Below, piece by piece: positions 7,004 to 54,646 of a stretch of 64,000 nt of DNA. The position numbers were made by a program, and so were the translations under genes. Within the stretch, counting starts at the first letter, position 1, and each line of letters begins with the position of its first letter. The DNA lies in the NCBI GenBank assembly GCA_020720455.1, contig DYOQ01000002.1, forward strand, positions 23,736-87,735, written 5' to 3'. Under the pieces are notes generated by a model. The model was not told the DNA's origin. It ran no database searches and worked only from the letters and a program-made list of their open reading frames with translations. The stretch comes from Bdellovibrio sp. (GTDB taxonomy: Bacteria > Bdellovibrionota > Bacteriovoracia > Bacteriovoracales > Bacteriovoracaceae).

Positions 7004-10000
7004 TCAATAATCATATGTGTGATACTTATCACTATAATTATCTGGATCTATTATAGAACTAGATATTGGAGTCACACACCTAAAACCGTGGATAACACTT
7101 ACATCCCCAGATGAACTACCACCAGTTAAATAACCTGGGGCATAGATCGTCTGAGCAGTAGCGCCAGTACCTGTTACAGTGGCCGTCACATATGCATTGC
7201 ACGGTAGAACATTAATAGCAGCTGCTAGCGCTGCTGCTGTTGTTCCTAAAACAAAAGTAACGGTCAACCTAATTGGATTAGTACCAGAAGCTGTACAACC
7301 GACACCACCAGATGCATATTCAACCCTAATATTATTACCAGCAGTTCCAGCATAAGCTGCTGTCGCTGTATACGTTAAATCCTGAATTGTTGCTGCGGCC
7401 CTAGTTCCAAATCCAATCGTAGTATCATGTGTTGTTTGGGCCATTGTAGGAGCATAAACTGTTGCGGTCATCGCGGTGGCCGCAATACCACCAATTGCAG
7501 TATTAATATCATTAGCAGTTGTAGTGGCACTATCAACTACGACATATAACGCTTTTTGAGTAGTGTTAATACAAACATTATTTGCTACTGCTAAAGATAA
7601 ATTAGCAGGGCCATCACATATTCCATTAACTGATCCAGTTCCAGCAGGGAGATATGTAACCGACCAGTTATCTCCACTACTACCTGGATAATCACTACCA
7701 GCTGTATAAGTAACTCCACTCCTCGTTAAACGAGCAGATGTCGATGTTGCAAAATCTACAGAGAATGGGTTCATTGAATTTGTTGTATACCCAGCAGGAT
7801 ATGTTGTAGTAAAAAGTTTTGTAGCACCAAGGGCCGAATCAATTGCATTTTTCACATCTAAATAAGTACTATACTTGCCCGCATCTCTACAAAGGCCAAC
7901 TGTGACTTGATGGTTAGGACAATCAATCGCCGCTACTGCATCTGATGGATTACATGCTACTGCAAGTGCAACGGTATTAACATTCCAAGCATCCGCTTCT
8001 GCACCTGTAATCATCATGGTACAAACACTATCGGTTGAATTGGTAGACGTAAAAGTCATCCCACCTATCGTTGCGCTAGCACTCACTCCTCCAACTAACC
8101 TTGATCCTGAAATATGTTGAGCAACATTACTTCCAACTAAGGATGCTGTTAATTCCGCACTAACAAGTGCTGTGTTATTAATCGAATCAACTATCTCTTG
8201 CGCAAGTGTTACACCATCAACAATTGTGACAACAATTAAATACGCAGTACCAGAAATGGTTACTCGTGATGAATTTAAAGTTGATCCTGGAATAAATACA
8301 ACAGACACACTATTTTCAGTATCAACACTAAATCCGATATCTCCTATCGTAGTTGCCACTGCGCTCATTCCACCAGTCAAAGATACTGAGGTAGTTAAAC
8401 TCTGGGCCATCGTCGATGCACCTCCAACAACACTTGCAACAACTAATGCAGATGCCGACGCATCACCATTTACTAAAGTAACAATCGTTCCTGCCGTTGT
8501 TACACCATTATCAATATTTATAGTTATCTCTTGAGATGAGACCGTTACCGAAGGAATACAGCCAGCTGTTCCACAGCTACTATACCCAACCTTTATACTG
8601 TTCCCACTATTTCCTGTCTCAACCGCAGTATAAAGCACATCTCGAATAGTTAATGTCGCAGCAGACTCTGTGTCCGTCCCAGACCGAGGAATCGCTGCCA
8701 TAAAATAACGGCCGGCCCTATCACCAGATTTATAACTTCCACCAACAGAGAGATCTCCATCATATGGGCCAGCAAGCAAGGTTGAACTTCCAATATCAAT
8801 ATAGTCGTTATGTAGTGCTGAAGTTGAAATCCCAGAGCTATTGCCAATTTGAAGCATACTCTTTCCACTCTCACTCGTTGGATTACTACTTATATAATCA
8901 CCAACAGCAGGAAGGCCCATCGGCAAAATAAAATAGGTAGCATTATTTTTCTTTTCGTAAAGAGTCCAGCCATTAATTGGAGAATCACAAGTTCCATCTA
9001 AATCAATATCAACACATGGGCCAGTTATACCGTTAAACGCATAAGTAAAAGGAACGGGATCAGCTGCATCAGCATAATCACCAGCTGGGTTTGAAGCAAT
9101 GGTACAAGTATCTCCAACTGCACAAGTGACAACATCACTGGCCCACTCTCCAACGTTTCCAATAAAGTCTTGAACTCCATATTTTGAAACACAAAGCTTT
9201 GTCTCGTCAGATCCTGTAATAACGGAACGAATTTCCGATGCTTCCGTTCCTGGAAGTGTGACGAAATACTCAGAGAGCGGAAGCTGAGTATCGGTATACC
9301 AATCTATAAGCCCACTAGCTTCTGTCGTATTACATTTTGACGTACTAGCAAGAGCTAACCCTGCCTCCATATTCGATATTTCTGCATCAGAGTAACCTGA
9401 ATCCCATGATGAGTATGCGATCTGTTCTCTTCTCGTTGGAATTCTCGGAGTTATCAACGGACTATTTTTATCAACATTAGATGAATCTGCATATTCAAAA
9501 GATAGTTCATCTTTATAAGTACAAATACTATTTGCACTCCCTCTTGAAACATAAGTAAGAGGTGCGAGATGAGCGTTATCTGTGTTATTAGCAACACCAC
9601 TCTCCCAAAGTGCTTGCGTAACTGCAGATGCTTCAACCCAATTATTTGCAGCTAACGATGAGTCATAGACATAACATTTACCTGAAGATCTATCATAATA
9701 AACATATCCATCTGCTTTATCATCAGCATCAAACGGTTCTGTACTATTAGGGTTTCCAATTCCAATACAACCATTGTATCCACATGCTCCATATGAATCA
9801 TGAGCGCTTGTATATGGGCAGCCAGCTTCAAACGCATCAACAATCATATCTTGTCCAATATCGTAATATCCATTATCTCTACCACTACCTGGGCCATAAT
9901 ACTCACATCTAAAATTTGACGTCCCGTCACTCTCTTTATGCAGAAGCCCGCAGATCTCTTTGTTTACAATCCACCTGTGAACAAAAACTCTATTTTTAGG

Positions 10001-34207: not shown

Positions 34208-35998
34208 TCAGCTCAATTTCTTAGAATTTTTTAAATTAAGGGCACGAAATGTAACATTTTGCAACGTAGTTGGGCGAACAGGTTTTAAACAGTGAATATC
34301 CATCCCTACACTATAGCATTTTTCAATGCCTTCTTTATAGGCATTGGCCGTTAATGCAATAATGGGAGTTCGACTACCAGACATACTCTCTAGTTCACGA
34401 ATCCGCTTAGTCGTATCGTAACCATCTAACTCTGGCATTAAACAATCCATATAAATCAAATCAAAATTTGTTTTACTGAAAATTTCAATAGCTTCAATTC
34501 CGTTAGACGCTGTAACAATATCGAGAATACCTATCTTATTAAGCATCCTAATAATAATTTTCTGAGTAAAATAATCATCCTCTACGAGTAGCACCTTTTC
34601 TTTGCCACTAATTGATTTTAAAATCAGGCCGTCATTTCCACAATCTATTGCATCTGTTACAAGTTCTACAGTAAAGGATACTGAGTTCTCACCCTCACCA
34701 AGATCATTTGCCCAAATTTTTCCACCTAATGCTTCAATTATTTTTTTAGAAACTTTATAAGAAAAATCTGTTCGCTCTATATCAAGAAATTTAACCCCAG
34801 TATCTTTAATATCAAACTCAATCTTTACGCCGTTAGAATCGAGCTTCAACATTTTAGCACTCAAGATTATATAACCTTCCCTCGTGTGCTTTAGAGAGTT
34901 ACCACATAAAATCATAATAACCTGTTTAATCCTTGTAACATCCCCCATAACATGAAGCGGGATTGAATCATCAATCTCAGTTTTAAACTCTAAAACTCTA
35001 TTCTGGGCCTTAAATTTAAAAATTTTTTCAATCTCTTCAAGCATATCATTAACAGAAAAATTAATTTTATCAATGACGAATCTATTTGTTCCAAGATTAT
35101 CCAAATCTAAAATTAGGTTTATAGAGTGGGCCAAAATATCTACAGAGTCTATAATAGCTCGAATATTTTTTTTATAAGTTTGATTAATATCGCTACCAAG
35201 CATAAACTGGCCTAGTCCAATAATGTTACTTAATGGGGTTCTTATTTCATGGGCCATCCCGGCCAGAAAACTAGATTTTTCAATCATCAAGTTTTCATTC
35301 ACGACCGTCTCGCCAAATATCTTATCTTTTATGAGAAAGATAATAATCATGATTGATGCAAAAATTGTTAAAAGCAAAATACCAAAATGTATTAGCAAGG
35401 AGTCTTTTAAAATTGCAATGCCATTACGAGGATTATTTACTGGGGCAATTACACTTAAGACACCGGCCAAATCGCCTATATTATAGAGAAAGCTAGTATA
35501 AGATCCATTATCGTTATTTGCCCCGTGACACTTTAAACAATATCTCTCAACCCATACTGGAACCGCGTAGCTATAGGCCTCTTTTTTGTTTATCAAAGTC
35601 TTTTCAAAAAACATCGCCGCATCACTGTTTTTTCTAAAATGATTGATCGCTCTTTGTTGTGACTCATTTGCTAAACGCTGCCTACCGACCGGATTATCAG
35701 AAACGTTACTAAAATACAACTCTTTGCTCTGCCACTTTTTTTCAAACTCTTCAAATAAAAAAGAGGTCGCATGCACAGGTGCTCTTTTTTCTTGAACTGA
35801 TGATTCATTAATTAAAACTCGCAAGTTTGCCTTATTCACCGACAACACTAAGTCACTCATGGCCTTAGAAAGTTTTATGTGTTCATGCATTTCATCATTG
35901 CTTAAAGAGGTGTACAGAAGCAACTCAATAAATACAAACAACACAATTGAGATCAGAGAACAAATTACAATAAGACGAGTTTTTACTGAAGTTTTCAT
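34208..35998 (-). CDS. Hybrid sensor histidine kinase with periplasmic CxxCH (DUF3365/Tll0287-like) sensor domain and C-terminal receiver
   Basis: 596 aa. TM1 at aa 8-30. The periplasmic domain contains CLKCH (aa 154-158, nt 35525-35539) followed by GDLAGVLSVIAP. TM2 at aa ~200-223. H-box MAHEIRTPLSN, N-box GNSLKHT. Receiver: VLLVEDD...DLIYMDCLMPELDG...ALTANA...KP. Confidence 0.85.
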   Translation of the reverse strand: MKTSVKTRLIVICSLISIVLFVFIELLLYTSLSNDEMHEHIKLSKAMSDLVLSVNKANLRVLINESSVQEKRAPVHATSFLFEEFEKKWQSKELYFSNVSDNPVGRQRLANESQQRAINHFRKNSDAAMFFEKTLINKKEAYSYAVPVWVERYCLKCHGANNDNGSYTSFLYNIGDLAGVLSVIAPVNNPRNGIAILKDSLLIHFGILLLTIFASIMIIIFLIKDKIFGETVVNENLMIEKSSFLAGMAHEIRTPLSNIIGLGQFMLGSDINQTYKKNIRAIIDSVDILAHSINLILDLDNLGTNRFVIDKINFSVNDMLEEIEKIFKFKAQNRVLEFKTEIDDSIPLHVMGDVTRIKQVIMILCGNSLKHTREGYIILSAKMLKLDSNGVKIEFDIKDTGVKFLDIERTDFSYKVSKKIIEALGGKIWANDLGEGENSVSFTVELVTDAIDCGNDGLILKSISGKEKVLLVEDDYFTQKIIIRMLNKIGILDIVTASNGIEAIEIFSKTNFDLIYMDCLMPELDGYDTTKRIRELESMSGSRTPIIALTANAYKEGIEKCYSVGMDIHCLKPVRPTTLQNVTFRALNLKNSKKLS

Positions 35999-36012: not shown

Positions 36013-36759
36013 CTAAAAAACTCTGCTATATGGTGGCAAAATATCTCCCTCTTTAATTTTCATTCCATGAGAAATTTCGCTCGAATGACCTATAGTAACT
36101 CCATTTGGTAATTTTGACAAAGGATAGAGCGTACAATTTCTTCCAATATTACAGTTGTCACCAATTGTAGTTCCTGCAGTAATAGAGCTGTACGCTCCGA
36201 TATTACAATTTTGGCCAATCTTTACCCTCATTAAACAGAGTTTATCTCCAATGAAACTGTGGCCGGAAATAATTACATCTAACCCAAGTATTGCTCCGGC
36301 ACCAATCGATACCATAAATGGATCATTTATTCGCGAATAGACACTCGGGGCCATATTAAAAGATATTTTAGCTCCACACGCTCTTAAAAAAATAGGTCTT
36401 AAAAGAAATGAAGCGAATATAAAATGCCTTACTAGTGGTAACTGCCAAATTTTAGCAAATTGGAAATTTACAAACCAGATGACAACCATTTTATCACCAG
36501 TCTTATACAGTCCTGGTTTTGGCCTTGGAAGCAAGAAACCTACCACACATAATGATAAATAAAACGACAACGCAGAAATTATTAAAAGTAACAACGTATG
36601 TAGTACTGGAAAATTTTCAAGAATCGAGACAAAAGTAAACAGTTTAAAAAAAACAATCGTAATTGCTATCACTATTACCCAAAGAACCCAGTAAATAAAC
36701 TCACCAATCACATACTTTTTTGCATTTTGAGCATTATTATAATTACCAGCAGGCCTCAT
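36013..36759 (-). CDS. Membrane-anchored left-handed beta-helix (hexapeptide-repeat) transferase-like protein, paralogue B
   Basis: 248 aa. Two N-terminal TM helices, LPRPKPGLYK, LRACGAKISF, then hexapeptide turns IGQNCNIGAYSSITAGTTIGDNCNIGRNC. Paralogous to the upstream ORF. Confidence 0.8.
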   Translation of the reverse strand: MRPAGNYNNAQNAKKYVIGEFIYWVLWVIVIAITIVFFKLFTFVSILENFPVLHTLLLLIISALSFYLSLCVVGFLLPRPKPGLYKTGDKMVVIWFVNFQFAKIWQLPLVRHFIFASFLLRPIFLRACGAKISFNMAPSVYSRINDPFMVSIGAGAILGLDVIISGHSFIGDKLCLMRVKIGQNCNIGAYSSITAGTTIGDNCNIGRNCTLYPLSKLPNGVTIGHSSEISHGMKIKEGDILPPYSRVF

Positions 36760-36761
36760 TT

Positions 36762-37493
36762 TTAAACCTCTTTTTCAGAACTATCAGCAACAAGATATTT
36801 TCTGTTTTTACCATACTCATATTCAAAATTTTTAATGATAGTATTCGGCGCAACCGTATCAAACGATAAATTATTATTGCCACCGATTGACACATCATCG
36901 CCTATTGTAGTTTTAGGTCCAATAAGCGTTTTCATTCCAATAAAAACGTTTTTTCCTATCACAATTGGAGCTAATAAAATTTTCTCCCCTTGAAAATTAT
37001 GACACGATATGTGGCAATAGGCACCTATTGAAGAACCCTCACCTATTGTGATCAATGGGTACTCTCTAAACGTCACAAGTGTTGATGAAAAAATCCCGAA
37101 AGCAATTTTTGCGCCCATCGCTCTAAAATAGAGCCACTTCAAAGTTTTATTACTAAAGATCAACATTTTAAGAGATGCTATCTCTAATCCTTGAGCAAGA
37201 GAGTTATTTAGATGCCAAACAATTGCACCTTTACTAACGCCAGGCCGGTAAATTCCTGGTTTCATTTTTGGAAGTACTCGTTGAAATAAAAAACAAATTA
37301 AAATAAACAGTAACGATAAAACTAGTGGTGATATGATCACAGCTAAAAACATTAACCATACGTTTGTAGATAAAATATAAATAAAAGCACCAGCACCAAA
37401 CCAAGCAAGAGCAGCTGGTACTGCCGAATAAAAATAACCGACCATATCTGCAAGTAACAAAAACACTATCGATGGCCGTTTAGATGTACTCAT
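36762..37493 (-). CDS. Membrane-anchored left-handed beta-helix (hexapeptide-repeat) transferase-like protein, paralogue A
   Basis: 243 aa. Two N-terminal TM helices, LPKMKPGIYR, FRAMGAKIAF, then hexapeptide turns IGKNVFIGMKTLIGPKTTIGDDVSIGGNN. ATGA overlap with the SDR gene. Confidence 0.8.
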   Translation of the reverse strand: MSTSKRPSIVFLLLADMVGYFYSAVPAALAWFGAGAFIYILSTNVWLMFLAVIISPLVLSLLFILICFLFQRVLPKMKPGIYRPGVSKGAIVWHLNNSLAQGLEIASLKMLIFSNKTLKWLYFRAMGAKIAFGIFSSTLVTFREYPLITIGEGSSIGAYCHISCHNFQGEKILLAPIVIGKNVFIGMKTLIGPKTTIGDDVSIGGNNNLSFDTVAPNTIIKNFEYEYGKNRKYLVADSSEKEV

Positions 37494-38263: not shown

Positions 38264-39220
38264 CTATCTTTTCTTAAATCTTAACATCTTTTTGCTTTCA
38301 AAATAGGTAATACTACTCTTTATCATCTCCTCTATCTCAATTTGGGGGGCATATCCAAAATCACGAAATGCTTTTTCGCTGCTTGCACTATACGAAAGAC
38401 AAAACTCTTTAACCATCTCTCCATTTATTATATCCGAGAAATCTATTTTTCCCAGGTCAACTTCCGTGATATTGGAAATAGATTCACCAGTAATTTTAGC
38501 ATAGCAATCTAAAAACTCTTTTATCTTATAATTATATCCGCCAAGTATATAATTTCCACTAGCACCACTTGATATTGCATCTAACACGCCCCTTGCTACA
38601 TCCGAAGCGGCAACAAAATTTTTGGTATTATTAATATAGCTTGTAAACTTGCCCATTTTAAGCGCGAAAAAAATAGCACCAGATGATGGCCTACTATCAA
38701 ACTCCCCTAACATATAACAAGGATGAATAGTCAAGAGTGGAAGCTGACTATTATTAGACAACCAAAGGTCAGCCTCTTTTTTTGTTCTACCATAAACAGT
38801 CTCTCTCCAAAAACTAGAGCTACATTCATCTATCATAGATGCATAACTGCTACTTCCAAAACAGGCGATACTTGAAATTTGAATAAATTTTTTTACTCCG
38901 CTAGCAAGCGCCCAGTGATAAAGGTTTTTAACACCACTAACATTTACCATCTCCATCATAGAACTATCTTTTTCAAAAGGACTAGCAAAAGCAGCGGCAT
39001 TAATTACGACATCAAACTTTTCTGTAACAAACGTCTCAACATTTGAAAGATCCATTGAGACTGTCGTATAGTTAACATTTTCGACAGTTCCAATATACGT
39101 TTTTGATGATACGTTTCTAGCAGCGCCGACTACTGTAAATCCTCGCGCTAAAGATTCCTTAACCAGATGGGAACCAAGAAGTCCAGAGGCCCCAGTAATT
39201 AAAATTTTCAAATGCCCCAC
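38264..39220 (-). CDS. NAD-dependent epimerase/dehydratase-family (extended SDR) protein
   Basis: 318 aa. ILITGASGLLGSHL and YGRTKKEAD (YxxxK). A TTG at 39211 (MKILITG...) preceded by AGGTGG is an alternative start. Confidence 0.8.
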   Translation of the reverse strand: MGHLKILITGASGLLGSHLVKESLARGFTVVGAARNVSSKTYIGTVENVNYTTVSMDLSNVETFVTEKFDVVINAAAFASPFEKDSSMMEMVNVSGVKNLYHWALASGVKKFIQISSIACFGSSSYASMIDECSSSFWRETVYGRTKKEADLWLSNNSQLPLLTIHPCYMLGEFDSRPSSGAIFFALKMGKFTSYINNTKNFVAASDVARGVLDAISSGASGNYILGGYNYKIKEFLDCYAKITGESISNITEVDLGKIDFSDIINGEMVKEFCLSYSASSEKAFRDFGYAPQIEIEEMIKSSITYFESKKMLRFKKR

Positions 39221-40197
39221 CTAATTGAAACTAACCCTAAATGGTATCCAGCACCCATTGCCATCATTAGAACTCTATCCCCTTTTTTTATCACACCTTT
39301 ATTATACGCATGCGATAGCGAAACTCCAGCGCTAGCGCTAGAAGAGTTTCCAAAAGTTTCAAAATTTATCCACGCCTTTTCTAGTGGTATTCCAAGTCTT
39401 TGGCAAATAACTCTAATCAAATTTCCATTACCCTGATGAAAAATAAAGTGATCATAGTCACTCTTACTCATCCCTTTATTTTTTAGAGTGTTCTCTATTT
39501 CATTAATAAGTTCAACAGTAGTTTTTTCAAAAATTTTACTCCCATCAACCATAGTTATTAGATGGCCACCGCTTGCAAAACTTTCATTAGTTAAAGGAGC
39601 AGCACTCCCGCCACCTGGAATTAAAATCTCATACTCATCACTACCAACAGTCTGAGTAACAATCCACTCGATCTCACCAGGTGGATTGTCACTTCTTTCT
39701 AATTTAATAGCACAAGCAGCATCAGAAAAAAGAAAAACTGTCCGTCTATCTTGAGTATTTAAAAATTTACTTCTTACTTCAGAAGCTATGACTAGCACCT
39801 CACTATCAACAGAAGAGGTCATCAACTTATTATATCCAAGTTCTAATGCAAATATTTGGCCAGCACATGCAGCATTAACATCAGTAGCACTTGATCTACC
39901 AGAAATTCCTAATTTACGTTTTACAATTGAGCTTGTTGATGGTGTTGGAAAATCACCGGAAATTGTAGAAAGATATATTGGGCCACAAAACCCTTCGAGG
40001 TCTAATTGTTTGGCCGCACTTACGGCCAAATCACTTGCGGCCTCGTTGGCGTTTGCCCAACGTCTCTCTTTTATTCCTATGACTTTCTCAACCCAAGCTG
40101 GTTTCATTCTAATATTAAATCGTTCAATCATCTCACTATTGGTTACAACTTGTTCAGGAACGTAGTGTGAAATTCCAGAAATCCAAATTTTACTCAT
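39208..40197 (-). CDS. 3-oxoacyl-ACP synthase III (KAS III/FabH-like), copy 2
   Basis: Start taken at MSKIWISGISHYVPEQ (ATG 40197, 8-nt overlap with the ligase stop); the track ORF extends 22 codons further upstream. Cys-His-Asn triad contexts: NAACAGQ, FHQGN, FGNSSSAS. Confidence 0.85.
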   Translation of the reverse strand: MSKIWISGISHYVPEQVVTNSEMIERFNIRMKPAWVEKVIGIKERRWANANEAASDLAVSAAKQLDLEGFCGPIYLSTISGDFPTPSTSSIVKRKLGISGRSSATDVNAACAGQIFALELGYNKLMTSSVDSEVLVIASEVRSKFLNTQDRRTVFLFSDAACAIKLERSDNPPGEIEWIVTQTVGSDEYEILIPGGGSAAPLTNESFASGGHLITMVDGSKIFEKTTVELINEIENTLKNKGMSKSDYDHFIFHQGNGNLIRVICQRLGIPLEKAWINFETFGNSSSASAGVSLSHAYNKGVIKKGDRVLMMAMGAGYHLGLVSIRWGI

Positions 40198-41521
40198 GTT
40201 TAATCCTTGATAAAAGATCTTGTCTATTAACCTTTCCCAATGAAAAGCGAGGAAATTGCTCAAAACAGTGGATCTCTTTTGGCACCTGATAAATAGTTAA
40301 TTTATGCTTTAAAAAATCATCAAGAAGTTTAACCTCAATCATTCCTTCTACGGCGAGGATTGGATACTCTTCATATTCACTACTTTTCTTTTTAAACACG
40401 ATACAATCAGTGATCAAATCATACTCTTTAACAACATCTTCAATATCTTTTGGATAAACGCTAATTCCACCAACGTTGATTAAATCATCCTCTCTTGAGA
40501 GAAAATTCACGCTCCCACATTCATCTATGCATACCAAATCTCTCGTTAGTAAATAATCATCGACCAACTCGTCTGCGCCAAGATTAATCTTGAGATATGG
40601 AGTTTTAATACAAAGTTTTCCCTCTCCACTTTTTTTAACTACTCCGTTTCTTAGAACTGCAAGCGTTACTCCTGAGATTGATTCACCAATATAACCCGTA
40701 GGCCTATCTCTTTTCCAAACTCCTGTAGTCACCCTTGGCCCAGCTTCAGTGAGGCCATAAGTTGTATAAATCTTTGTCGCAGGAAATAGTTCGGATAACT
40801 TCTCAAGTAAACCAGTGGACGCCATCCCACCTCCGACACTAAAACTCTTTATCCCCTTAATTCCTCCGCTCCTCTCTTTTACTACAAATGAGAGTTGAGC
40901 TGGACTAAGATGTAAAATGCAATCACAAAGCTCTCTTTTTTGCAAGGCCCTTATTCCTAAGAATGCTCGATTAAAATTTAGCCTATTTCCGACTTCAATC
41001 GTTGTAAAAATATACGCGATTATTCCAAATGAATGATAAATTGGTAGCGACTGAATAACTTGGTCTTCACTAGCAATATTTAAACTATCAGCATGTGCCT
41101 TAGCACAAGCTCTTGCATTAACCGCATCAAGTACACATAGCTTGGGAACACTCGTTGTCCCAGATGTTAAAGATCCATAGCAACCAGTGACGCTAGCTTT
41201 AACACTACCGCCAGTAACTTTAAAATTATCAAGAACCACTGGATTTCCACGAGACATCTTAATCTTATCAAATTGAAAATCTGGAAGATCTGTTGGGATA
41301 GCTACTGGAAAATGTCCAGCATCAATGGCCGCCAGAAAAATTAGAGCAAACCTAAATGGGTCTTTATCTCTTAACAAGATCTCACTATTTGAGGCCAACT
41401 CATTAATAATGGAGCTTACCTCTAGAAGAAGTTGCTCTTTAAACTCCTGAGTACAAACACTCTTCTCGACTGAGATCTCTCTTGAAATAAATAGTGAACA
41501 AAGATTACTAGACATTATCAC
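40190..41521 (-). CDS. AMP-dependent synthetase/ligase (adenylate-forming enzyme), short form
   Basis: 443 aa. Core motifs LTSGTTSVPK, YGLTEAGP, TRDLV...REDDLINVGGISVYPKDIE, and the terminal LGKVNR. Alternative ATG start at 41515. Confidence 0.85.
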   Translation of the reverse strand: MIMSSNLCSLFISREISVEKSVCTQEFKEQLLLEVSSIINELASNSEILLRDKDPFRFALIFLAAIDAGHFPVAIPTDLPDFQFDKIKMSRGNPVVLDNFKVTGGSVKASVTGCYGSLTSGTTSVPKLCVLDAVNARACAKAHADSLNIASEDQVIQSLPIYHSFGIIAYIFTTIEVGNRLNFNRAFLGIRALQKRELCDCILHLSPAQLSFVVKERSGGIKGIKSFSVGGGMASTGLLEKLSELFPATKIYTTYGLTEAGPRVTTGVWKRDRPTGYIGESISGVTLAVLRNGVVKKSGEGKLCIKTPYLKINLGADELVDDYLLTRDLVCIDECGSVNFLSREDDLINVGGISVYPKDIEDVVKEYDLITDCIVFKKKSSEYEEYPILAVEGMIEVKLLDDFLKHKLTIYQVPKEIHCFEQFPRFSLGKVNRQDLLSRIKHE

Positions 41522-41760
41522 TCAAGCCTTTCTAAATGCTTTACACAATCATCAATGGTACTCCAATCAGCTATGGCCATCTCGTCTAGCGCTGGATAGG
41601 CTTCTTGAAGTTCATAAACTAAACTCATTAATGCTAAAGAATCAAAGCCAAGATCTGCTTTAAACTCCATCTCTTGACGAATCTCTTTTAGATTAACCTT
41701 TGGATTTAAATCTTCACACTTTTCAATTACTGATAATACTTTTTCAAAGATCATGTTCAT
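41518..41760 (-). CDS. Acyl/peptidyl carrier protein
   Basis: 80 aa from MNMIFEK. Phosphopantetheine attachment motif DLGFDSLALMSL. AAGGTG RBS lies inside the end of the upstream gene. The track ORF carries an 11-codon N-terminal extension, which I discard. Confidence 0.85.
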   Translation of the reverse strand: MNMIFEKVLSVIEKCEDLNPKVNLKEIRQEMEFKADLGFDSLALMSLVYELQEAYPALDEMAIADWSTIDDCVKHLERLE

Positions 41761-41762
41761 AC

Positions 41763-42779
41763 TTACACCTTTTGCATGGCAAGAGCTGCCCAAGAGAGGC
41801 CACCACCAACTGCATGATAAACAATAATATCACCACTATTTATTTTCCTAGTACTCATCCACTGCATATAGTTCAAAAATATTGTAGGACAACCCATATT
41901 ACCAAACTGTTCAAAATTAAGAGCGATCGCCTCATCTGGAATATCAAACTCTTTGGCAAACTGATAATTTTTTGAACCGTCAACTTGATGTGCAATATAG
42001 TGATGAATCTCTCTTCCAGAAATATTAGAGACTCTAAGTAAATCTTCTAACGATTTTTTCCAATAGTGAGCAATCATCTCAGAGGTTCCCCCCTTCTCGC
42101 TAAAATTAAACGTATACTCTAACGGATTATAGCACTTGACATCTACTGGATACTTCCCTGGAACATACATAGATTTCATAAACCGGGCATCTGTACCATG
42201 AACTGCTCCTAAAACTTTAAAATCTTTTGCTGGCTCCACAACAAAGGCAACTGCCCCATCCCCTATCGAAGCTGCCATCTGCAATGTCTCTTTATTGGTA
42301 AATTTTGAAAAAGTCTCACTACAAACAATAATCCCTTTCTTTGCCCCTCTGTTGACCCATTCAAGTGCCTGCATAAGAGCTAGCACTCCTGTCGAACAAC
42401 CAGATTTCAAATCCCAGCAACTTGTATTTTGCAACTCGAGTTCTGAAGCTAAAAATGCACTCTGACATACTGTTGGCATGGGATTAGAAATTCCAGCAAA
42501 AATCATAAACTCGGCATCTGTTACAAGGCCTGGATCACTCTGTATTAACTTAGAGAGGGCACTCTTTGCTAAATCAAGCGAGTCAACACCATCTTTGGCC
42601 CAATACCGATTTTTAATCTTCATCTTCTTCGTAATAAACTCAAGAAGTCGAACATCCGCATTCCCATCTCGGCCATATTTTAAAATATCTTCGTTCTCAA
42701 TAGAGTGCATAGTAGAAAAATCACAGCTTTTAATAGATCTAATGTTAATTCCAAAAAAAAAATTATTTGCATTAAACAT
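41763..42779 (-). CDS. 3-oxoacyl-ACP synthase III (KAS III/FabH-like), copy 1
   Basis: 338 aa. Triad contexts LKSGCSTGVLAL, IAHQVDG, FGNMGCPT. 8-nt overlap with the upstream carboxyltransferase. Confidence 0.85.
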   Translation of the reverse strand: MFNANNFFFGINIRSIKSCDFSTMHSIENEDILKYGRDGNADVRLLEFITKKMKIKNRYWAKDGVDSLDLAKSALSKLIQSDPGLVTDAEFMIFAGISNPMPTVCQSAFLASELELQNTSCWDLKSGCSTGVLALMQALEWVNRGAKKGIIVCSETFSKFTNKETLQMAASIGDGAVAFVVEPAKDFKVLGAVHGTDARFMKSMYVPGKYPVDVKCYNPLEYTFNFSEKGGTSEMIAHYWKKSLEDLLRVSNISGREIHHYIAHQVDGSKNYQFAKEFDIPDEAIALNFEQFGNMGCPTIFLNYMQWMSTRKINSGDIIVYHAVGGGLSWAALAMQKV

Positions 42780-51870: not shown

Positions 51871-52209
51871 ATGAGTATTAAAAACAGAGGTTCAAAACTT
51901 TACAAAAATGATGGATTCTCCCTTGTAGAGATAATGATCGCAATAGCTCTTCTAGGCGGAGTAACAATCATATTTCTACACCTAACTGACAATATCAAAA
52001 AAACCGAACAGGCAATGCTTTCAACAATCGACGCTTCTGATTCTGTCATGATCCGAGTCTGTCGCTCTCTTGGGACTACCTATGATGCAAAAAATAGCAA
52101 GTGCGAGCTAAATATTAACTCTCCCGAGATGAACTCCATGAAAGATATCAAATTAGATTCTGCACAGATGGAAGAGTTAATGAAAAATATGCAAAAGATG
52201 TTTCAGTAA
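51871..52209 (+). CDS. Type IV pilin-like / pseudopilin protein with prepilin N-terminal methylation motif
   Basis: Start at ATG 51871. MSIKNRGSKLYKNDG|FSLVEIMIAIALLGGVTIIF contains the G|FxxxE cleavage/methylation motif plus a hydrophobic helix. 112 aa. Confidence 0.8.
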   Translation: MSIKNRGSKLYKNDGFSLVEIMIAIALLGGVTIIFLHLTDNIKKTEQAMLSTIDASDSVMIRVCRSLGTTYDAKNSKCELNINSPEMNSMKDIKLDSAQMEELMKNMQKMFQ

Positions 52210-54587
52210 AAGAGTATCTTATCAGTCGCCTCTGAAAGAATAAGATCCCAATCTAATAATTGATAGCGATACTCACCATCTAAATACATTCTTACCTGAT
52301 CTTGATAGTTAGGTGATAGCACATGTCCTGATTGTCCGGCCGGTAAAATACCCATACTAAGCTCTGGATAAGCAAAATCGATTAGCCGTCGAGTAGAAGG
52401 GAGCGAGGTGATTTTCAACTCATTACCACACCCAGAAGCTCTCATATTGTTTATCTGATTAAATCCACCACTAGCAGGAAGGGGCCCGATATTAAAAATC
52501 TTATTCAGAGGCGATACCGATCCCAAAGGGTGTTCATATTCAAGAGTATGCAACCGGCCCCAGTACCAAGTGTTAATATCTCCTCCAAACTTGCTCTTTA
52601 ACGTATCAATTGTCTCTTTCCAACCAGCAATAATAATATCTCCACCCCTTTCAACAACACTCGTATTAACTTGGTCCCACCACACATCACCCATATCATT
52701 AAGGACTCTTTTATAAAAAAACCAGTATGTCGTTAAGTCACAATATTTTTCCAAACTATCTGACGAGAGCTCATCCACGATAAGTCTCACATTAGTTCGA
52801 TTCCACAAGTGAAACATCGTCGCTTCTGTCGAACTCATATCCGACTGATAATTCCATCTCTTTAATCTATTATAAGCTTCAAGATATATCCCCGTTAATT
52901 CACCGGCCCTCTCGTCCATCTCTTTCGTTAAAACAGACATTATATCCATAAATGTTGCATCAACCGCTCTAGTCTGCATAATTTGAAAATCTGAAAGATC
53001 CCATTTTTCCTTAACATTTAACATCTGAGTGATTGTATCAAACCTATCATTTGGCTCCCATAAACCTTGCCACTTATTATCAAAACCAGCTGGGATATAG
53101 TTTGCTGAAACGATATAACCGATATCCGGATTGACACTATGAGGATTTTTTTCAAACGGCAGATAACCTAAATACTCCTCCTTACCAGAGCTACCATCTA
53201 AAAACCTATCCGACATTACACCTTTAGGCATTAGAGGAATTTTTCCATACACCCACCATCCAATATTTCCCTTAGCATCAGCATAACTTATATTTAGTCC
53301 TGGAGCAGATCCAAGAACTATCGCCGATTTAAACTCATCCATACTAGATGCTGTTCCTAACTTATAAAGTGCCTCAATAGAGTAATTATCATCATCAAAA
53401 TAGACCCACCTCAAAGAGAGATCATTCTTAATTTTACCTGTATCCATAATTGAGTTTATTAATGGGCCATGTGGGGTAATCAAAATCTCCAGATTATAAT
53501 CCGGCCCACCTTTCACCTTGATAACTTCACTCTCTTTTTCTAATGCGACCCACTCTCCCTTAAACTTAACTAGGCCTTTTTCCCGATCAACCTGTTCATT
53601 ATAAAGATTAATCTCGTCAATCTTTGACATCGTCATTGCCCATCCATAATGTTCATTATGGCCAAGAACAGGGAACGGAAGAATCGGAAGAAAATGGCCG
53701 TACATTCTATAGCTACCACTTTCGATATGTGCCTCATACCAAGTTCCAGGGTGAGATGTTGCGATATGAGGATCATTAGCAAGAATTGGATACCCACTTT
53801 TTGTTCTCTTTCCTGAGACAACCCACGAATTACTACCGTGCAGATTACCACCAAAACGAGAGAGCGTACTCTCTGTCGTTTTAATAATATTATTCCAAAT
53901 CTCGATCTCTTTCTTATTTAATACAACTGGAACACCAGCTCTTGAAACTTTCTCTGGGAAAATTTTCAAATCATCGAGCATCTTCTCGCTCAATTTATCT
54001 TGAAGCTCCTGAAACAAAAGATCATTTCTAAATGAGGTTGCAAAGCTATATCCCATGTAACCGATAAATGAGATTCCATCAAGCATATCAAAATGGTCAG
54101 GTCGATATCCTAGCAACTTAAATTCAATTGGAAGAGGCCTAGTATCAATGTAATGATTTACTCCTTTATAAAACGCATCTAAATACCTGAGCATATCCTT
54201 ATTTAATCTATCTCTACTTTTTCCAAGCAGCTTTTTCATCGCTGCTTTAAAACGAAAAGTCCTAAATAGCTTGTCGGCCTCAAGTGCCCGCGCTCCAAAA
54301 ATCTCACTCAAACGGCCACTCGCTACCCTTCTATGAATATCCATCTGAAAAAGACGATCACTGGCCATCACAAACCCAAGAGTATGATACATCTCTTCTT
54401 TTGAATTTGCCTTGATATGAGGAACCCCGAAAGAATCCTTAATAACCGTTGTCTCGCTTGTAACAAGTGGAAGATCCGTGCCAGTCATATTTTTAGGAAG
54501 AGAACTCTCCCACACAGATTTAACAACCACGAATGGTAAATATATTATCGTTATTAAAATAATAGGAAGAACAAAACGAATCTTCAT
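52203..54587 (-). CDS. Penicillin/AHL acylase family Ntn-hydrolase (S45)
   Basis: Start at MKIRFVLPIILITIIYLPFVVV (ATG 54587). Autoprocessing/nucleophile motif G|SNSWVVSGKRTKSGYPILANDPH. ~794 aa. Confidence 0.85.
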   Translation of the reverse strand: MKIRFVLPIILITIIYLPFVVVKSVWESSLPKNMTGTDLPLVTSETTVIKDSFGVPHIKANSKEEMYHTLGFVMASDRLFQMDIHRRVASGRLSEIFGARALEADKLFRTFRFKAAMKKLLGKSRDRLNKDMLRYLDAFYKGVNHYIDTRPLPIEFKLLGYRPDHFDMLDGISFIGYMGYSFATSFRNDLLFQELQDKLSEKMLDDLKIFPEKVSRAGVPVVLNKKEIEIWNNIIKTTESTLSRFGGNLHGSNSWVVSGKRTKSGYPILANDPHIATSHPGTWYEAHIESGSYRMYGHFLPILPFPVLGHNEHYGWAMTMSKIDEINLYNEQVDREKGLVKFKGEWVALEKESEVIKVKGGPDYNLEILITPHGPLINSIMDTGKIKNDLSLRWVYFDDDNYSIEALYKLGTASSMDEFKSAIVLGSAPGLNISYADAKGNIGWWVYGKIPLMPKGVMSDRFLDGSSGKEEYLGYLPFEKNPHSVNPDIGYIVSANYIPAGFDNKWQGLWEPNDRFDTITQMLNVKEKWDLSDFQIMQTRAVDATFMDIMSVLTKEMDERAGELTGIYLEAYNRLKRWNYQSDMSSTEATMFHLWNRTNVRLIVDELSSDSLEKYCDLTTYWFFYKRVLNDMGDVWWDQVNTSVVERGGDIIIAGWKETIDTLKSKFGGDINTWYWGRLHTLEYEHPLGSVSPLNKIFNIGPLPASGGFNQINNMRASGCGNELKITSLPSTRRLIDFAYPELSMGILPAGQSGHVLSPNYQDQVRMYLDGEYRYQLLDWDLILSEATDKILFY

Positions 54588-54646
54588 AAAAACTCCACAA
54601 GAAACAGTTTTGACATGGGCCACAGCATCTATGTTATAATAAATCC

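Follow-up and report, generated by a model that had tools for sequence, protein, structure and literature searches.

Two adjacent ORFs in the window, the 64,000-nt stretch of a Bdellovibrio sp. contig analysed here, code for proteins of 243 and 248 residues that we named LbhA and LbhB, respectively. Profile comparisons showed both to be homologous, along their full length, to the repeated unit of the three-unit C-terminal polymerisation domain of Pls, the epsilon-poly-L-lysine synthetase of Streptomyces albulus, and PosA, the delta-poly-L-ornithine synthetase of Acinetobacter baumannii. The clade of free-standing single-unit (FS) proteins to which they belong is persistently linked to stand-alone AMP-ligases, carrier proteins, KAS III/KS enzymes and reductases. 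We propose, with a probability of about 0.6, that LbhA and LbhB are catalytically competent, membrane-anchored left-handed beta-helix (LbH) acyltransferases, each of them corresponding to one Pls/PosA unit and working with an ACP-bound donor. Together, the conserved fatty-acid-like operon and the FS units point to an undescribed split version of the Pls machinery that makes a lipid.

The Pls domain forms amide bonds without a classical condensation domain, and its unit is now seen as a stand-alone protein of ~245 residues. To date, descriptions of the Pls/PosA membrane domain have been limited to three units fused into one block (PMC10522769), in an architecture that a 2021 paper confined to Pls-related synthetases (PMC8117764). 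We found no published description of a free-standing Pls-type unit or of a split machinery, and searches of the PDB by sequence or fold yielded no solved structure of the Pls membrane domain.

The sequence-only reading had likened the two proteins to Pls/PosA terminal modules, and three lines of evidence agree with this resemblance. First, TIGR02353 is the top NCBIfam match for LbhA (54.3 bits, E 7.5e-15; next family, 30.5) and the joint top match for LbhB (40.0 bits), in which it covers residues 54-220, including the second transmembrane helix and the linker. Both proteins score far below the TIGR02353 cutoff of 423 bits, each covering model positions ~41-202 of 695, which corresponds to one unit. 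They have no AMP-binding or PP-binding domain, and no fused A or T domain. LbhA and LbhB are related to the unit by homology but fall outside the Pls/PosA family.

Second, a profile of the LbhA/LbhB family matched proteins of 1300-1390 residues, with exactly three in-register matches in each (E 7e-46 to 1e-35) and each Pls unit aligning with profile positions ~12-220. These three-unit proteins rank before any ordinary LbH transferase, and the best matches outside the family are thus Pls/PosA proteins rather than the anchored sugar O-acetyltransferases that the sequence-only reading had named as the competing outcome. The four that we checked (P0066, P0069, P0085 and P0092) reach 558-605 bits on TIGR02353 and contain amino-acid adenylation domains, and two matches from Undibacterium (L019 and L027) are ordinary Pls-type genes coding for 1362 residues. 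Third, we built profiles of the non-hexapeptide N-terminal region only. The FS profile matched 18 of 24 Pls proteins and the Pls profile matched 83 of 117 FS proteins, with none of the 83 generic LbH proteins being matched by either of them. Alignment of the FS and Pls N-terminal regions with hhalign gave a probability of 97% (E 1.5e-11 to 2.3e-11). A narrow N-terminal profile of 17 sequences did not reach the Pls proteins at whole-database stringency, and it took the broader family profiles and hhalign to establish the FS-Pls link.

LbhA and LbhB are paralogs (34% identity over 185 residues, E 5e-26 with BLASTP) encoded 2 nt apart, with a GAGG sequence 8 nt upstream of the LbhB ATG (Table 1). 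The common architecture described for them from the sequence was recovered almost entirely, starting with the exact coordinates of the two ORFs. The two long hydrophobic N-terminal helices are borne out by Kyte-Doolittle windows of ≥1.6, which span residues 9-77 of LbhA and 15-79 of LbhB, and by the AlphaFold2 models, which place helices at residues 9-43 and 45-73 of LbhA, and 9-42 and 51-76 of LbhB. Both announced motifs are present verbatim, namely LPxxKPGxY (LPKMKPGIYR in LbhA and LPRPKPGLYK in LbhB) and a second one that reads FRAMGAKIAF in LbhA and LRACGAKISF in LbhB. The hexapeptide turns correspond to significant Pfam Hexapep matches (1.3e-9 for LbhA and 1.9e-12 for LbhB) and, in the LbhB model, to a regular beta-helix of approximately six turns from residue ~131 to 246. 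One element did not hold: what had been read as a further hydrophobic stretch, between the two motifs, does not form a third membrane segment. No Kyte-Doolittle window reaches 1.6 in this region, which is modelled in LbhA as a linker of three short amphipathic helices (88-106, 109-113 and 116-125).

The models (pLDDT 79 for LbhA; pLDDT 95 and pTM 0.90 for LbhB) agree with the anatomy of the published PosA model, in which bent membrane helices and helices preceding the beta-helix accompany three packed, five-turn beta-helices (PMC10522769). Based on the basic residues found at both ends of the LbhA hairpin, the beta-helix is probably cytoplasmic.

Table 1. Features of the LbhA/LbhB locus, in window coordinates.
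Feature	Coordinates	Strand	Basis
LbhA, free-standing Pls-type unit (membrane hairpin, linker helices and left-handed beta-helix)	36762..37493	-	ORF, 243 aa
LbhA membrane hairpin, residues 9-73	37275..37469	-	Kyte-Doolittle windows, AlphaFold2 helices, translation checked
LbhA motif LPKMKPGIYR, P75 and G80 invariant in the family	37245..37274	-	Family alignment, translation checked
LbhA His165 codon (HISCH), putative catalytic base	36999..37001	-	Conservation; codon checked
LbhB, paralogous free-standing Pls-type unit	36013..36759	-	ORF, 248 aa
LbhB membrane hairpin, residues 9-76	36532..36735	-	Kyte-Doolittle windows, AlphaFold2 helices, translation checked
LbhB His167 codon (SGHSF), putative catalytic base	36259..36261	-	Invariant in one alignment; codon checked
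Hybrid sensor kinase/receiver	34208..35998	-	Tll0287-like, HisKA, HATPase_c, Response_reg
SDR/FabG-like ketoreductase, 250 aa	37490..38242	-	adh_short 6e-27; FabG-type NCBIfam matches all below cutoff
NAD-dependent epimerase/3-beta-HSD-like reductase, 318 aa	38264..39220	-	Epimerase 2e-22
KAS III (FabH-like) 'a'	39208..40263	-	ACP_syn_III and ACP_syn_III_C; PRK09352 226 bits
Short AMP-forming ligase, 443 aa	40190..41521	-	AMP-binding 1.9e-21; acyl-CoA ligase/MenE-type matches
Acyl carrier protein, DSL phosphopantetheine site	41518..41793	-	PP-binding 3.4e-6; AcpP-type NCBIfam matches
Divergent KAS III 'b', 338 aa	41763..42779	-	ACP_syn_III and ACP_syn_III_C; PRK09352 124 bits
Carboxyltransferase-domain protein (PCC-beta/AccD/MdcD-like), 512 aa	42772..44310	-	Carboxyl_trans 5.8e-25

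At least ~120 clusters of free-standing single-unit proteins form a separate clade. In a neighbour-joining phylogeny with the Pls/PosA units, the FS units split from the Pls units with a bootstrap value of 82/100, the bootstrap distances being computed with an upper limit and the FS-Pls distances being saturated, at 3.2-4.0 substitutions per site. Both proteins are placed in the FS clade, apart from Pls, with LbhA in FS subclade 0 and LbhB in a second, deeply diverged one, FS subclade 1. Searches with a subclade-1 profile retrieved mostly generic LpxA/LpxD-type hexapeptide proteins and added only P0144.

We defined the signature of the FS clade as a length of 200-310 residues and, in LbhA numbering, Pro75, Gly80, Trp93, Gly127, Asp/Glu144 and His165. 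These columns are 90-100% conserved in 118 FS members, and they read PGWGEH in LbhA and PGWGDH in LbhB. His165 is present in 99% of the FS members and in 100% of the Pls C3 units, and it is absent as a conserved residue from C1 and C2. Similarly, Asp/Glu144 is found in 90% of the FS members and 96% of the C3 units. Two relatives are fusion proteins. P0120 combines FAAL, acyl-CoA dehydrogenase and PP-binding domains with one unit, its carrier domain being directly upstream of the unit, and P0118 is a fusion of three FS-type units with the His residue in each, which supports a trimeric assembly.

The nine genes of the operon (44310-36013) overlap or are separated by 2-21 nt. The carboxyltransferase gene, whose product has 1x0u as its nearest PDB entry (2e-19), heads the operon downstream of a 130-nt intergenic region, and at the other end the stop codon of the SDR gene overlaps the LbhA start codon (ATGA). 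The sequence-only reading had named an adenylating enzyme and a carrier protein as separate polypeptides, together with KAS III chemistry, and the operon indeed codes for an AMP-ligase, an ACP and two KAS III enzymes. The ligase, the probable loader of the carrier protein, has MenE, FadD5 and MatB as its nearest PDB entries. It is not of the amino-acid adenylation type, scoring 69 bits on AA-adenyl-dom, whose cutoff is 317. As the ligase and carrier belong to the fatty-acyl/ACP type instead of forming an amino-acid A-T pair, a lipid is a more probable product than a polyamino acid. No aminotransferase or other PLP-dependent enzyme was detected in the operon by Pfam and NCBIfam scans. The 318-residue reductase has HpnA-like (111 bits) and OleD-like (45 bits) NCBIfam matches, both below cutoff. 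The true starts of KAS III 'a', in whose translation Cys-His-Asn motifs were spotted by eye, and of the ACP are probably the ATG codons at 40197 (329 residues) and 41760 (80 residues), respectively.

The sensor kinase gene begins 14 nt past the LbhB stop codon, and the sole terminator-like site of the minus strand past the operon is beyond it, at 34195-34179. The kinase gene is thus possibly co-transcribed with the operon, its membership of the system being uncertain. There is no exporter gene near the operon within the window.

Analyses of the genetic environments of the homologs covered 18 informative loci from Bdellovibrionota and high-GC bacteria, and in 14 of them an AMP-ligase and/or carrier gene was no more than 10 kb away. 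Most of these loci also harbour KAS III, reductase and carboxyltransferase genes, and the SDR gene neighbouring the unit is conserved in related loci. No ligase or carrier gene was found near the homolog in four informative loci (L004/L009, L017, L042 and L045). The pair is therefore not commonly found without such genes, the pattern that would have spoken against the Pls comparison. Similar gene sets surround the homologs in metagenome-assembled genomes of Bacteriovoracia, Bdellovibrionales, Oligoflexia and Pseudobdellovibrionaceae, with shuffled gene orders and strands. The genes of distant relatives with 24-34% identity have a carrier-protein gene as their immediate neighbour in three loci: L040 and L044, where ligase, KS and SDR genes are close by, and L043, with a type I PKS gene in the vicinity. 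L040 also carries an ApeI-like dehydratase gene. Lastly, MMPL, MFS or MatE genes are adjacent to the homolog in L001, L003 and L007.

Based on these analyses, LbhA and LbhB most likely form membrane trimers that transfer an ACP-bound acyl product to an acceptor. The units would assemble with six membrane helices and cytoplasmic beta-helices, as homotrimers of each paralog or as mixed trimers, in the manner of all LbH transferases and of the pseudo-trimeric Pls domain. The dedicated ACP would receive from the ligase a carboxylic acid rather than an amino acid, and the KAS III pair, the carboxyltransferase and both reductases (SDR and 3-beta-HSD-like) would elaborate it, probably into a beta-hydroxy or branched acyl-ACP. 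The conserved His (165 in LbhA and 167 in LbhB) and Asp/Glu (144 and 146) residues would then activate an amine or hydroxyl acceptor for attack on the acyl-S-ACP thioester, freeing an amphiphilic product at the membrane. In related loci, an adjacent MMPL, MFS or MATE transporter would export this product. The two paralogs may perform two successive acylations or act as one mixed complex.

A more far-reaching interpretation, which we consider possible but doubtful, is that the free-standing units represent an ancestral or dissociated ('type II') Pls/PosA condensation machine. A six-helix, three-beta-helix complex of LbhA and LbhB would then join carrier-thioester monomers, possibly repeatedly, to a free acceptor and deliver the product into or across the membrane. 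If true, this would define a new biosynthetic class, in which FAS/PKS-type chemistry is joined to a release/condensation enzyme that is neither a C domain nor a thioesterase.

Regarding the acyl donor, the C-terminal ACP-docking domain of the LpxA/LpxD kind was not detected in LbhA and LbhB with Pfam. A sequence search of the PDB, and Foldseek with the lower-confidence LbhA model, returned nothing meaningful, and Foldseek with the LbhB model returned only soluble LbH folds. The closest ones, and the best global fold matches, are the acetyl-CoA-dependent maltose O-acetyltransferases 3srt, 1ocx, 3ect and 3hjj (TM-scores of 0.50-0.57, normalised to the target), and a CoA thioester donor is thus equally compatible with the LbhA/LbhB fold. 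LbhA and LbhB might accordingly be tailoring O-acetyl- or short-acyltransferases that use acetyl-CoA, like the maltose/galactoside enzymes or the lipid-directed YvoF, to decorate a hydroxyl of the operon lipid, their likeness to Pls reflecting common ancestry only. The two operon reductases would create such hydroxyls, and the His residue of SGHSF lines up with the catalytic His of the LacA 'GHP' motif, at an inferred alignment offset. We nevertheless regard this function as unlikely. The NCBIfam matches to the heptaprenylglyceryl phosphate O-acetyltransferase, WcaF, LacA and MAT families are weak (17-35 bits against cutoffs of 192-347), including those to the YvoF-like NF058585 (34.7 and 30.5 bits; cutoff 300), and the Mac domain is missing. 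Furthermore, the nearest outside relatives are the carrier-protein-dependent Pls/PosA enzymes, and a carrier gene borders that of the unit in three loci (L040, L043 and L044); in P0120, the carrier domain directly precedes the unit on the same chain.

Less probable still is a dissociated Pls-like polymerase, in which an iterative trimer would join ACP-tethered hydroxy- or aminoacyl monomers to a free chain and thread the resulting oligo-ester or oligo-amide through the six-helix bundle. A trimer would reproduce the architecture of the Pls units, with six membrane helices and three beta-helices in total; Pls itself is iterative, with a growing chain to which it has no covalent link (review PMC9205021), and KAS III and SDR enzymes would supply a 3-hydroxyacyl-ACP with its own nucleophile. 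However, the ligase does not belong to the amino-acid adenylation enzymes (69 vs 317 bits), the operon lacks an aminotransferase, the MMPL-type lipid exporters of related loci suggest a small amphiphile, and the sequences carry no sign bearing on iteration.

Acylation of lipid A or polysaccharides by envelope-modifying, LpxA/LpxD-like enzymes in a fortuitous operon arrangement is highly improbable: LpxD and LpxA models do match the hexapeptide region (E 1e-10 to 1e-5), one homolog was named an LpxA-type enzyme by JGI annotators and the P0013 locus harbours a glycosyltransferase and an Acyl_transf_3 gene, but the Lpx matches cover only residues 179-235 at 23-41 bits (cutoffs 207-243), the LpxD N-terminal and LpxA C-terminal domains are absent, and the genes are translationally coupled, with a ligase/ACP/KAS III/SDR linkage that persists across phyla despite gene-order shuffling.

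Two known types of gene clusters were also considered and rejected. The beta-lactone cassettes of the OleABCD, lipstatin or nocardiolactone type similarly combine two KAS III enzymes, a ligase and a 3-beta-HSD reductase. Such a cassette is not supported: its only sign is the OleD-like score, far below the cutoff of 580 bits, there is no OleA- or OleC-type match, and the reductase gene is missing from some related loci. A bacterial sphingolipid cluster does not fit an operon devoid of a PLP-dependent enzyme.

The occurrence of the unit as a stand-alone protein suggests a possible evolutionary path from trimers of identical active units to three-unit fusions such as P0118 and then to Pls, in which the Glu-His pair occurs only in the third unit. 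The small FS proteins should be usable for structural and mechanistic work, as tractable stand-ins for the structurally unsolved Pls domain. They also signal a conserved, unannotated class of lipid/polyketide-like gene clusters that current rules would miss and that is present in lineages of predatory bacteria (Bdellovibrionota) and in high-GC bacteria.

Among known systems, Pls and PosA share with LbhA and LbhB a two-helix membrane hairpin that leads, through a short strand and linker helices, into a left-handed beta-helix with five to six turns. Trp93 is common to C1 and C2, Gly127 to all three units and the Asp/Glu-His pair to C3. A trimer of LbhA/LbhB would reproduce the layout of six transmembrane segments and three LbH domains, and adenylating enzymes and phosphopantetheinyl carriers are associated with both systems. 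In contrast, Pls and PosA harbour three units per polypeptide with fused A and T domains, and only their C3 unit has the putative catalytic pair, which is present in every FS copy. The LbhA/LbhB partners are a fatty-acyl ligase, an ACP, KAS III enzymes, reductases and a carboxyltransferase, a context of fatty-acyl type that makes a diamino-acid substrate unlikely.

The maltose/galactoside O-acetyltransferases MAT, LacA and NodL, whose folds are the nearest solved ones to the soluble portion (rmsd 3.6-5.0 A over ~175-190 columns), also form LbH trimers, and their catalytic His likewise sits in a 'GH' context. Unlike LbhA and LbhB, they are soluble, use acetyl-CoA and have an N-terminal Mac domain and no membrane hairpin; on the MAT/LacA models NF007499 and NF007076, LbhA and LbhB score 17-24 bits against cutoffs of 314-347. 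LpxA and LpxD are LbH trimers that move a (3-hydroxy)acyl group from ACP to a hydroxyl or amine with a catalytic His, and by analogy they are the best functional parallel for a putative pair of ACP-dependent LbH enzymes that act one after the other. Both are soluble, with N- or C-terminal domains of their own (PF04613 and PF13720), neither of which is found in LbhA or LbhB, and the similarity is limited to the hexapeptide repeats.

Type II aryl-polyene and flexirubin-like clusters comprise a ligase, an ACP, a KS, KR/DH enzymes, an acyltransferase and an MMPL-type exporter. They share with the operon and its related loci a ligase that loads the starter, an ACP of their own, condensing enzymes and reductases, and a membrane acyltransferase for off-loading; with the related loci they also have in common an MMPL exporter and, in L040, the ApeI-like dehydratase. 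Their off-loading enzymes are acyltransferases of the LPLAT type, not LbH proteins, and the LbhA/LbhB operon differs from them by its KAS III-type condensing enzymes and its lack of dehydratase or aromatic-starter genes. Finally, by analogy only, the system might follow a logic similar to that of mycolic acids, with the carboxyltransferase in the role of AccD4, the ligase in that of FadD32, KAS III in that of the Pks13 KS, the SDR in that of CmrA, the LbH proteins at the off-loading step and MMPL in the role of MmpL3.

TIGR02353, the NCBIfam model of the Pls/PosA family of NRPS-type synthetases (695 positions, cutoff 423 bits), is the best NCBIfam match of LbhA (54.3 bits, E 7.5e-15; next family 30.5 bits) and the joint best match of LbhB (40.0 bits). 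Scores far under the cutoff are expected, since each protein holds one unit (membrane hairpin, linker helices and left-handed beta-helix, LbH) and the model three. The LbhB match covers residues 54-220, from membrane helix 2 through the linker into the beta-helix, and the match to LpxD is confined to the hexapeptides at 179-235. We then ran a profile of 17 sequences, made from the few close relatives that word-indexed searches gave, against 1.84 billion representative proteins. The list is headed by at least ~120 short proteins (200-310 aa) that match over their full length, and from E 7e-46 down it contains proteins of 1300-1390 aa with exactly three matched stretches each. No generic transferases of LpxA, LpxD or MAT size were found among the best 150 matches. 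The four long proteins checked (P0066, P0069, P0085 and P0092) reach 558-605 bits on TIGR02353 and contain amino-acid adenylation domains; in each of them, all three units cover profile positions ~12-220.

Because hexapeptide repeats alone give high scores (60-96 bits for generic LbH proteins against the subclade profile), the N-terminal, non-hexapeptide part was examined separately. Over region 1-135 (LbhA numbering), a profile of the free-standing, single-unit proteins gave in-register matches to 18 of 24 Pls-type proteins, and a Pls profile matched 83 of 117 free-standing proteins. A Pls profile limited to the linker (74-135, without the membrane helices) matched 44 of the 117, and none of the three matched any of 83 generic LbH proteins. 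Hhalign gave 97.3% probability for the linker region (E 2.3e-11, 57 columns) and 97.4% for the whole N-terminal region (E 1.5e-11, 121 columns). At whole-database stringency, the narrow N-terminal profile of 17 sequences did not by itself extend to Pls, and thus the N-terminal signal is real but modest. Together, these comparisons uphold the proposal of the sequence-only reading that LbhA and LbhB resemble the Pls/PosA terminal modules, and show homology with the unit.

LbhA and LbhB share 34% identity over 185 residues (E 5e-26). The architecture first read from their sequences was largely recovered: hydropathy and AlphaFold2 hairpins agree on two long N-terminal hydrophobic helices, the motifs LPKMKPGIYR/LPRPKPGLYK and FRAMGAKIAF/LRACGAKISF are present verbatim, and the hexapeptide turns give significant Hexapep matches in both. 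The further hydrophobic stretch exists, but it is modelled as a helical linker and not as a third membrane segment. The LbhB model (pLDDT 95, pTM 0.90) has a hairpin (9-42, 51-76), a strand (83-86), linker helices (90-105, 108-115, 120-127) and a regular beta-helix to ~246. The LbhA model (pLDDT 79, pTM 0.79) has a hairpin (9-43, 45-73), a strand (80-82), linker helices (88-106, 109-113, 116-125), a beta-helix at lower confidence and a disordered tail (216-243). In both proteins Lys/Arg clusters flank the hairpin, before helix 1 and past helix 2, so that by the positive-inside rule the beta-helix is probably cytoplasmic. No Pfam model covers the first 130 residues, and the relatives found in databases are named 'hypothetical' or carry generic or incorrect depositor names.

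In a neighbour-joining tree built from 118 free-standing proteins together with 72 Pls units, all free-standing proteins and one fusion stand apart from all Pls units, with C1, C2 and C3 (the three tandem Pls units) each largely monophyletic. In a 77-taxon subset, bootstrap support was 82/100 for this split, 96 for C2 and 98 for C3; distances across the split are saturated, and the tree gives neither root nor direction of evolution. LbhA and LbhB fall in the two deepest free-standing subclades, and thus the tandem pair stems from an old rather than a recent duplication.

Column statistics defined a free-standing signature (LbhA numbering) of Pro75, Gly80, Trp93, Gly127, Asp/Glu144 and His165. 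Gly127 is universal, Pls units included, and Gly80 and Trp93 are shared with C1 and C2. Among Pls units the Asp/Glu144-His165 pair is found only in C3 (96% and 100%); in the 24 Pls-type proteins (e.g. P0066, P0069), Glu and His occupy these columns in C3 only, and the His position of C1 and C2 holds Tyr, Ser or other residues. This pattern suggests that the Pls pseudo-trimer has only one active site; we found no mention of the pattern in the accessible literature. The His165/167 context is 'SCH' in LbhA and 'SGH' in LbhB, and from the alignment offset we infer that this His lines up with the catalytic His of the LacA 'GHP' motif. Each free-standing protomer would then be catalytically competent, with one active site retained in the fused pseudo-trimer. 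Three-unit fusions with the free-standing signature also exist (P0118, 651 aa; P0076, 683 aa; P0115, 960 aa), P0118 having His in all three units. They provide natural evidence of three such units working together and may be intermediate forms linking free trimers with Pls. Their units read PGWGD-, not the Pls C1/C2/C3 signatures.

The lbh genes close a tight nine-gene operon, with junctions of 4-13 nt overlap or 2-21 nt gap. The SDR stop and LbhA start overlap as ATGA, and 2 nt separate the LbhA stop from the LbhB start, which has GAGG 8 nt 5' of it.

Features of the window (operon genes numbered in order of transcription)
Feature	Position	Strand	Length	Basis
Operon, nine genes	44310 to 36013	-		window ORFs
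1 Carboxyltransferase		-	512 aa	Pfam/NCBIfam
2 Divergent KAS III ('b')		-	338 aa	Pfam/NCBIfam
3 Acyl carrier protein	41518-41793	-		Pfam/NCBIfam
4 Short AMP-forming ligase	40190-41521	-	443 aa	Pfam/NCBIfam
5 FabH-like KAS III ('a')	39208-40263	-		Pfam/NCBIfam
6 NAD-epimerase/3-beta-HSD-like reductase		-	318 aa	Pfam/NCBIfam
7 SDR		-	250 aa	Pfam/NCBIfam
8 LbhA	36762-37493	-	243 aa	
9 LbhB	36013-36759	-	248 aa	
Hybrid sensor kinase	34208-35998	-		
Penicillin-amidase-family protein	52203-54623	-	806 aa	
ORF without Pfam match at E 1e-5	7004-12784	-	1926 aa	

The adenylating enzyme and the carrier protein, as anticipated, are separate polypeptides. The TTG starts of the ACP and KAS III 'a' ORFs are mechanical and probably too far upstream; with the later ATGs at 41760 (80-aa ACP) and 40197 (329-aa KAS III), most apparent gene overlaps vanish. 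The carrier is AcpP-like with a DSL site, both KAS III enzymes are of the Cys-His-Asn type, and the carboxyltransferase is PCC-beta/MdcD-like. The ligase is N-terminally short, its Pfam match beginning at model position 169, and all core motifs are there on inspection of the translation by eye. It is closer to acyl-CoA/dicarboxylate ligases (MenE, MatB, FadD5) than to amino-acid A domains. Its best solved relatives include dicarboxylate ligases (MenE, malonyl-CoA synthetase/MatB, oxalate-CoA ligase) besides the fatty-acid-CoA ligases FadD5 and FadD13, and a dicarboxylic-acid starter is one possibility. The hybrid sensor kinase (Tll0287-like sensor, HisKA, HATPase, receiver) begins 14 nt past the LbhB stop, and in the related locus L007 a 7TMR-DISM histidine kinase also lies directly 3' of the LbhB homologue. 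The operon is preceded, ~8 kb upstream, by the gene for an AHL-acylase-like Ntn hydrolase of the penicillin-amidase family, whose members cleave N-acyl amides.

Close relatives are rare, with 14 and 5 matches in word-indexed searches of 5.8 billion proteins, and in species-representative genomes they come only from Bdellovibrionota MAGs (Bacteriovoracia, Bdellovibrionales, Oligoflexia, Pseudobdellovibrionaceae). The window sequence also matches a MAG contig (GCA_974332015.1) and one JGI metagenome contig. Using tblastn with the nine operon proteins and gene tables, we found an LbhA homologue within 10 kb of ligase, KAS III 'a' and SDR genes in L002/L011, L003/L008, L007, L010, L012, L014, L015, L016 and the P0013 locus. 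These genes are usually accompanied by those for the ACP, KAS III 'b' and the carboxyltransferase, and often by that for the 3-beta-HSD-like reductase; gene order and strand are extensively shuffled. MMPL, MFS or MatE transporter genes adjoin several of the sets, one locus has a GH3 amido-synthetase and another a fatty-acid desaturase. Proteins of both the LbhA and the LbhB type are encoded in the window, L007, L014, L016 and the P0013 locus, and each of these also has the 3-beta-HSD-like gene. The LbhB type is found only in loci with this reductase, which also occurs without LbhB in L003/L008 and L010.

More distant units keep this linkage. On the 15.2-kb metagenome contig L040, the LbH gene for P0144 (24% identical to LbhB) comes after those for a carboxyltransferase, a ligase and a carrier protein, in that order. 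The whole type II cluster there is larger and comprises two ligases, three carrier proteins, two KAS III, a split KS, a KR, a FabA/ApeI-like dehydratase and an HMG-CoA-synthase/ECH beta-branching cassette. The order in L041 is SDR, LbH, one unassigned gene, carrier protein. Among high-GC relatives (69-73% GC), L044 has LbH, carrier protein, KS, then ligase and SDR, and in L043 a carrier-protein gene lies directly 5' of LbH, beside a type I PKS gene. In P0120 (1556 aa, outside the window), one unit of the free-standing type (144 bits vs 19-79 bits for Pls units) shares a single chain with a fatty-acyl-AMP ligase, an acyl-CoA dehydrogenase and a PP-binding domain, a Rosetta-stone fusion that ties the unit to the chemistry of fatty-acyl carriers. 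In L004/L009, L017, L042 and L045, neither a ligase nor a carrier was observed close to the homologue. The pair thus does not commonly occur without these partners: linkage was observed in 14 of the 18 informative loci (L013, too short to judge, left out).

Homology to the Pls unit, the conserved His and Asp/Glu, the tight operon and the kept linkage to ligase, carrier and condensing enzymes are the basis of the following scheme. LbhA and LbhB would trimerise in the membrane, with their beta-helices on the cytoplasmic side. The ligase would load an acid onto the AcpP-like carrier, and the two KAS III, the carboxyltransferase and the two reductases would yield a modified acyl-ACP, probably a beta-hydroxy one. 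Its acyl group would then be passed by the LbH trimer(s) to an acceptor with an amine or a hydroxyl, much as LpxA and LpxD use 3-hydroxyacyl-ACP. In the main rival reading, the proteins would be tailoring acetyltransferases that depend on acetyl-CoA, as a MAT-like fold allows: maltose O-acetyltransferases (TM-score 0.50-0.57) are the nearest solved folds of the soluble part. Iterative polymerisation is a further possibility, though an unsupported one. The acyl-transfer step proposed here would be analogous to Pls catalysis, in which the free lysine amine attacks the T-domain thioester (review PMC9205021).

The unit architecture has been stated to occur only in Pls-related synthetases (PMC8117764), and in openly accessible full text we found it described only in fused synthetases; a description in subscription journals is possible. 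Free-standing units offer an evolutionary series that leads from a free trimer to the fused pseudo-trimer, and a tractable model for a structurally unsolved enzyme domain, and they mark an unannotated class of lipid-type gene clusters. By sequence and by fold, the PDB holds no solved structure with the hairpin-linker-LbH arrangement. LbhA and LbhB lack what defines the MAT/LacA, LpxA/LpxD and YvoF families (Pfam, NCBIfam). They differ from Pls/PosA in having neither three units per chain nor a fused A-T, in scoring below the TIGR02353 cutoff and in their partner ligase, which is not of the amino-acid type. The AlphaFold/RoseTTAFold model of the PosA domain shows six bent membrane helices in three pairs and three packed, five-turn left-handed beta-helices with approximate three-fold symmetry, two helices and a strand separating each helix pair from its beta-helix (PMC10522769). 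This anatomy is that of three copies of the LbhA and LbhB models, which are homologous to the Pls/PosA unit and probably act like it, outside that family.
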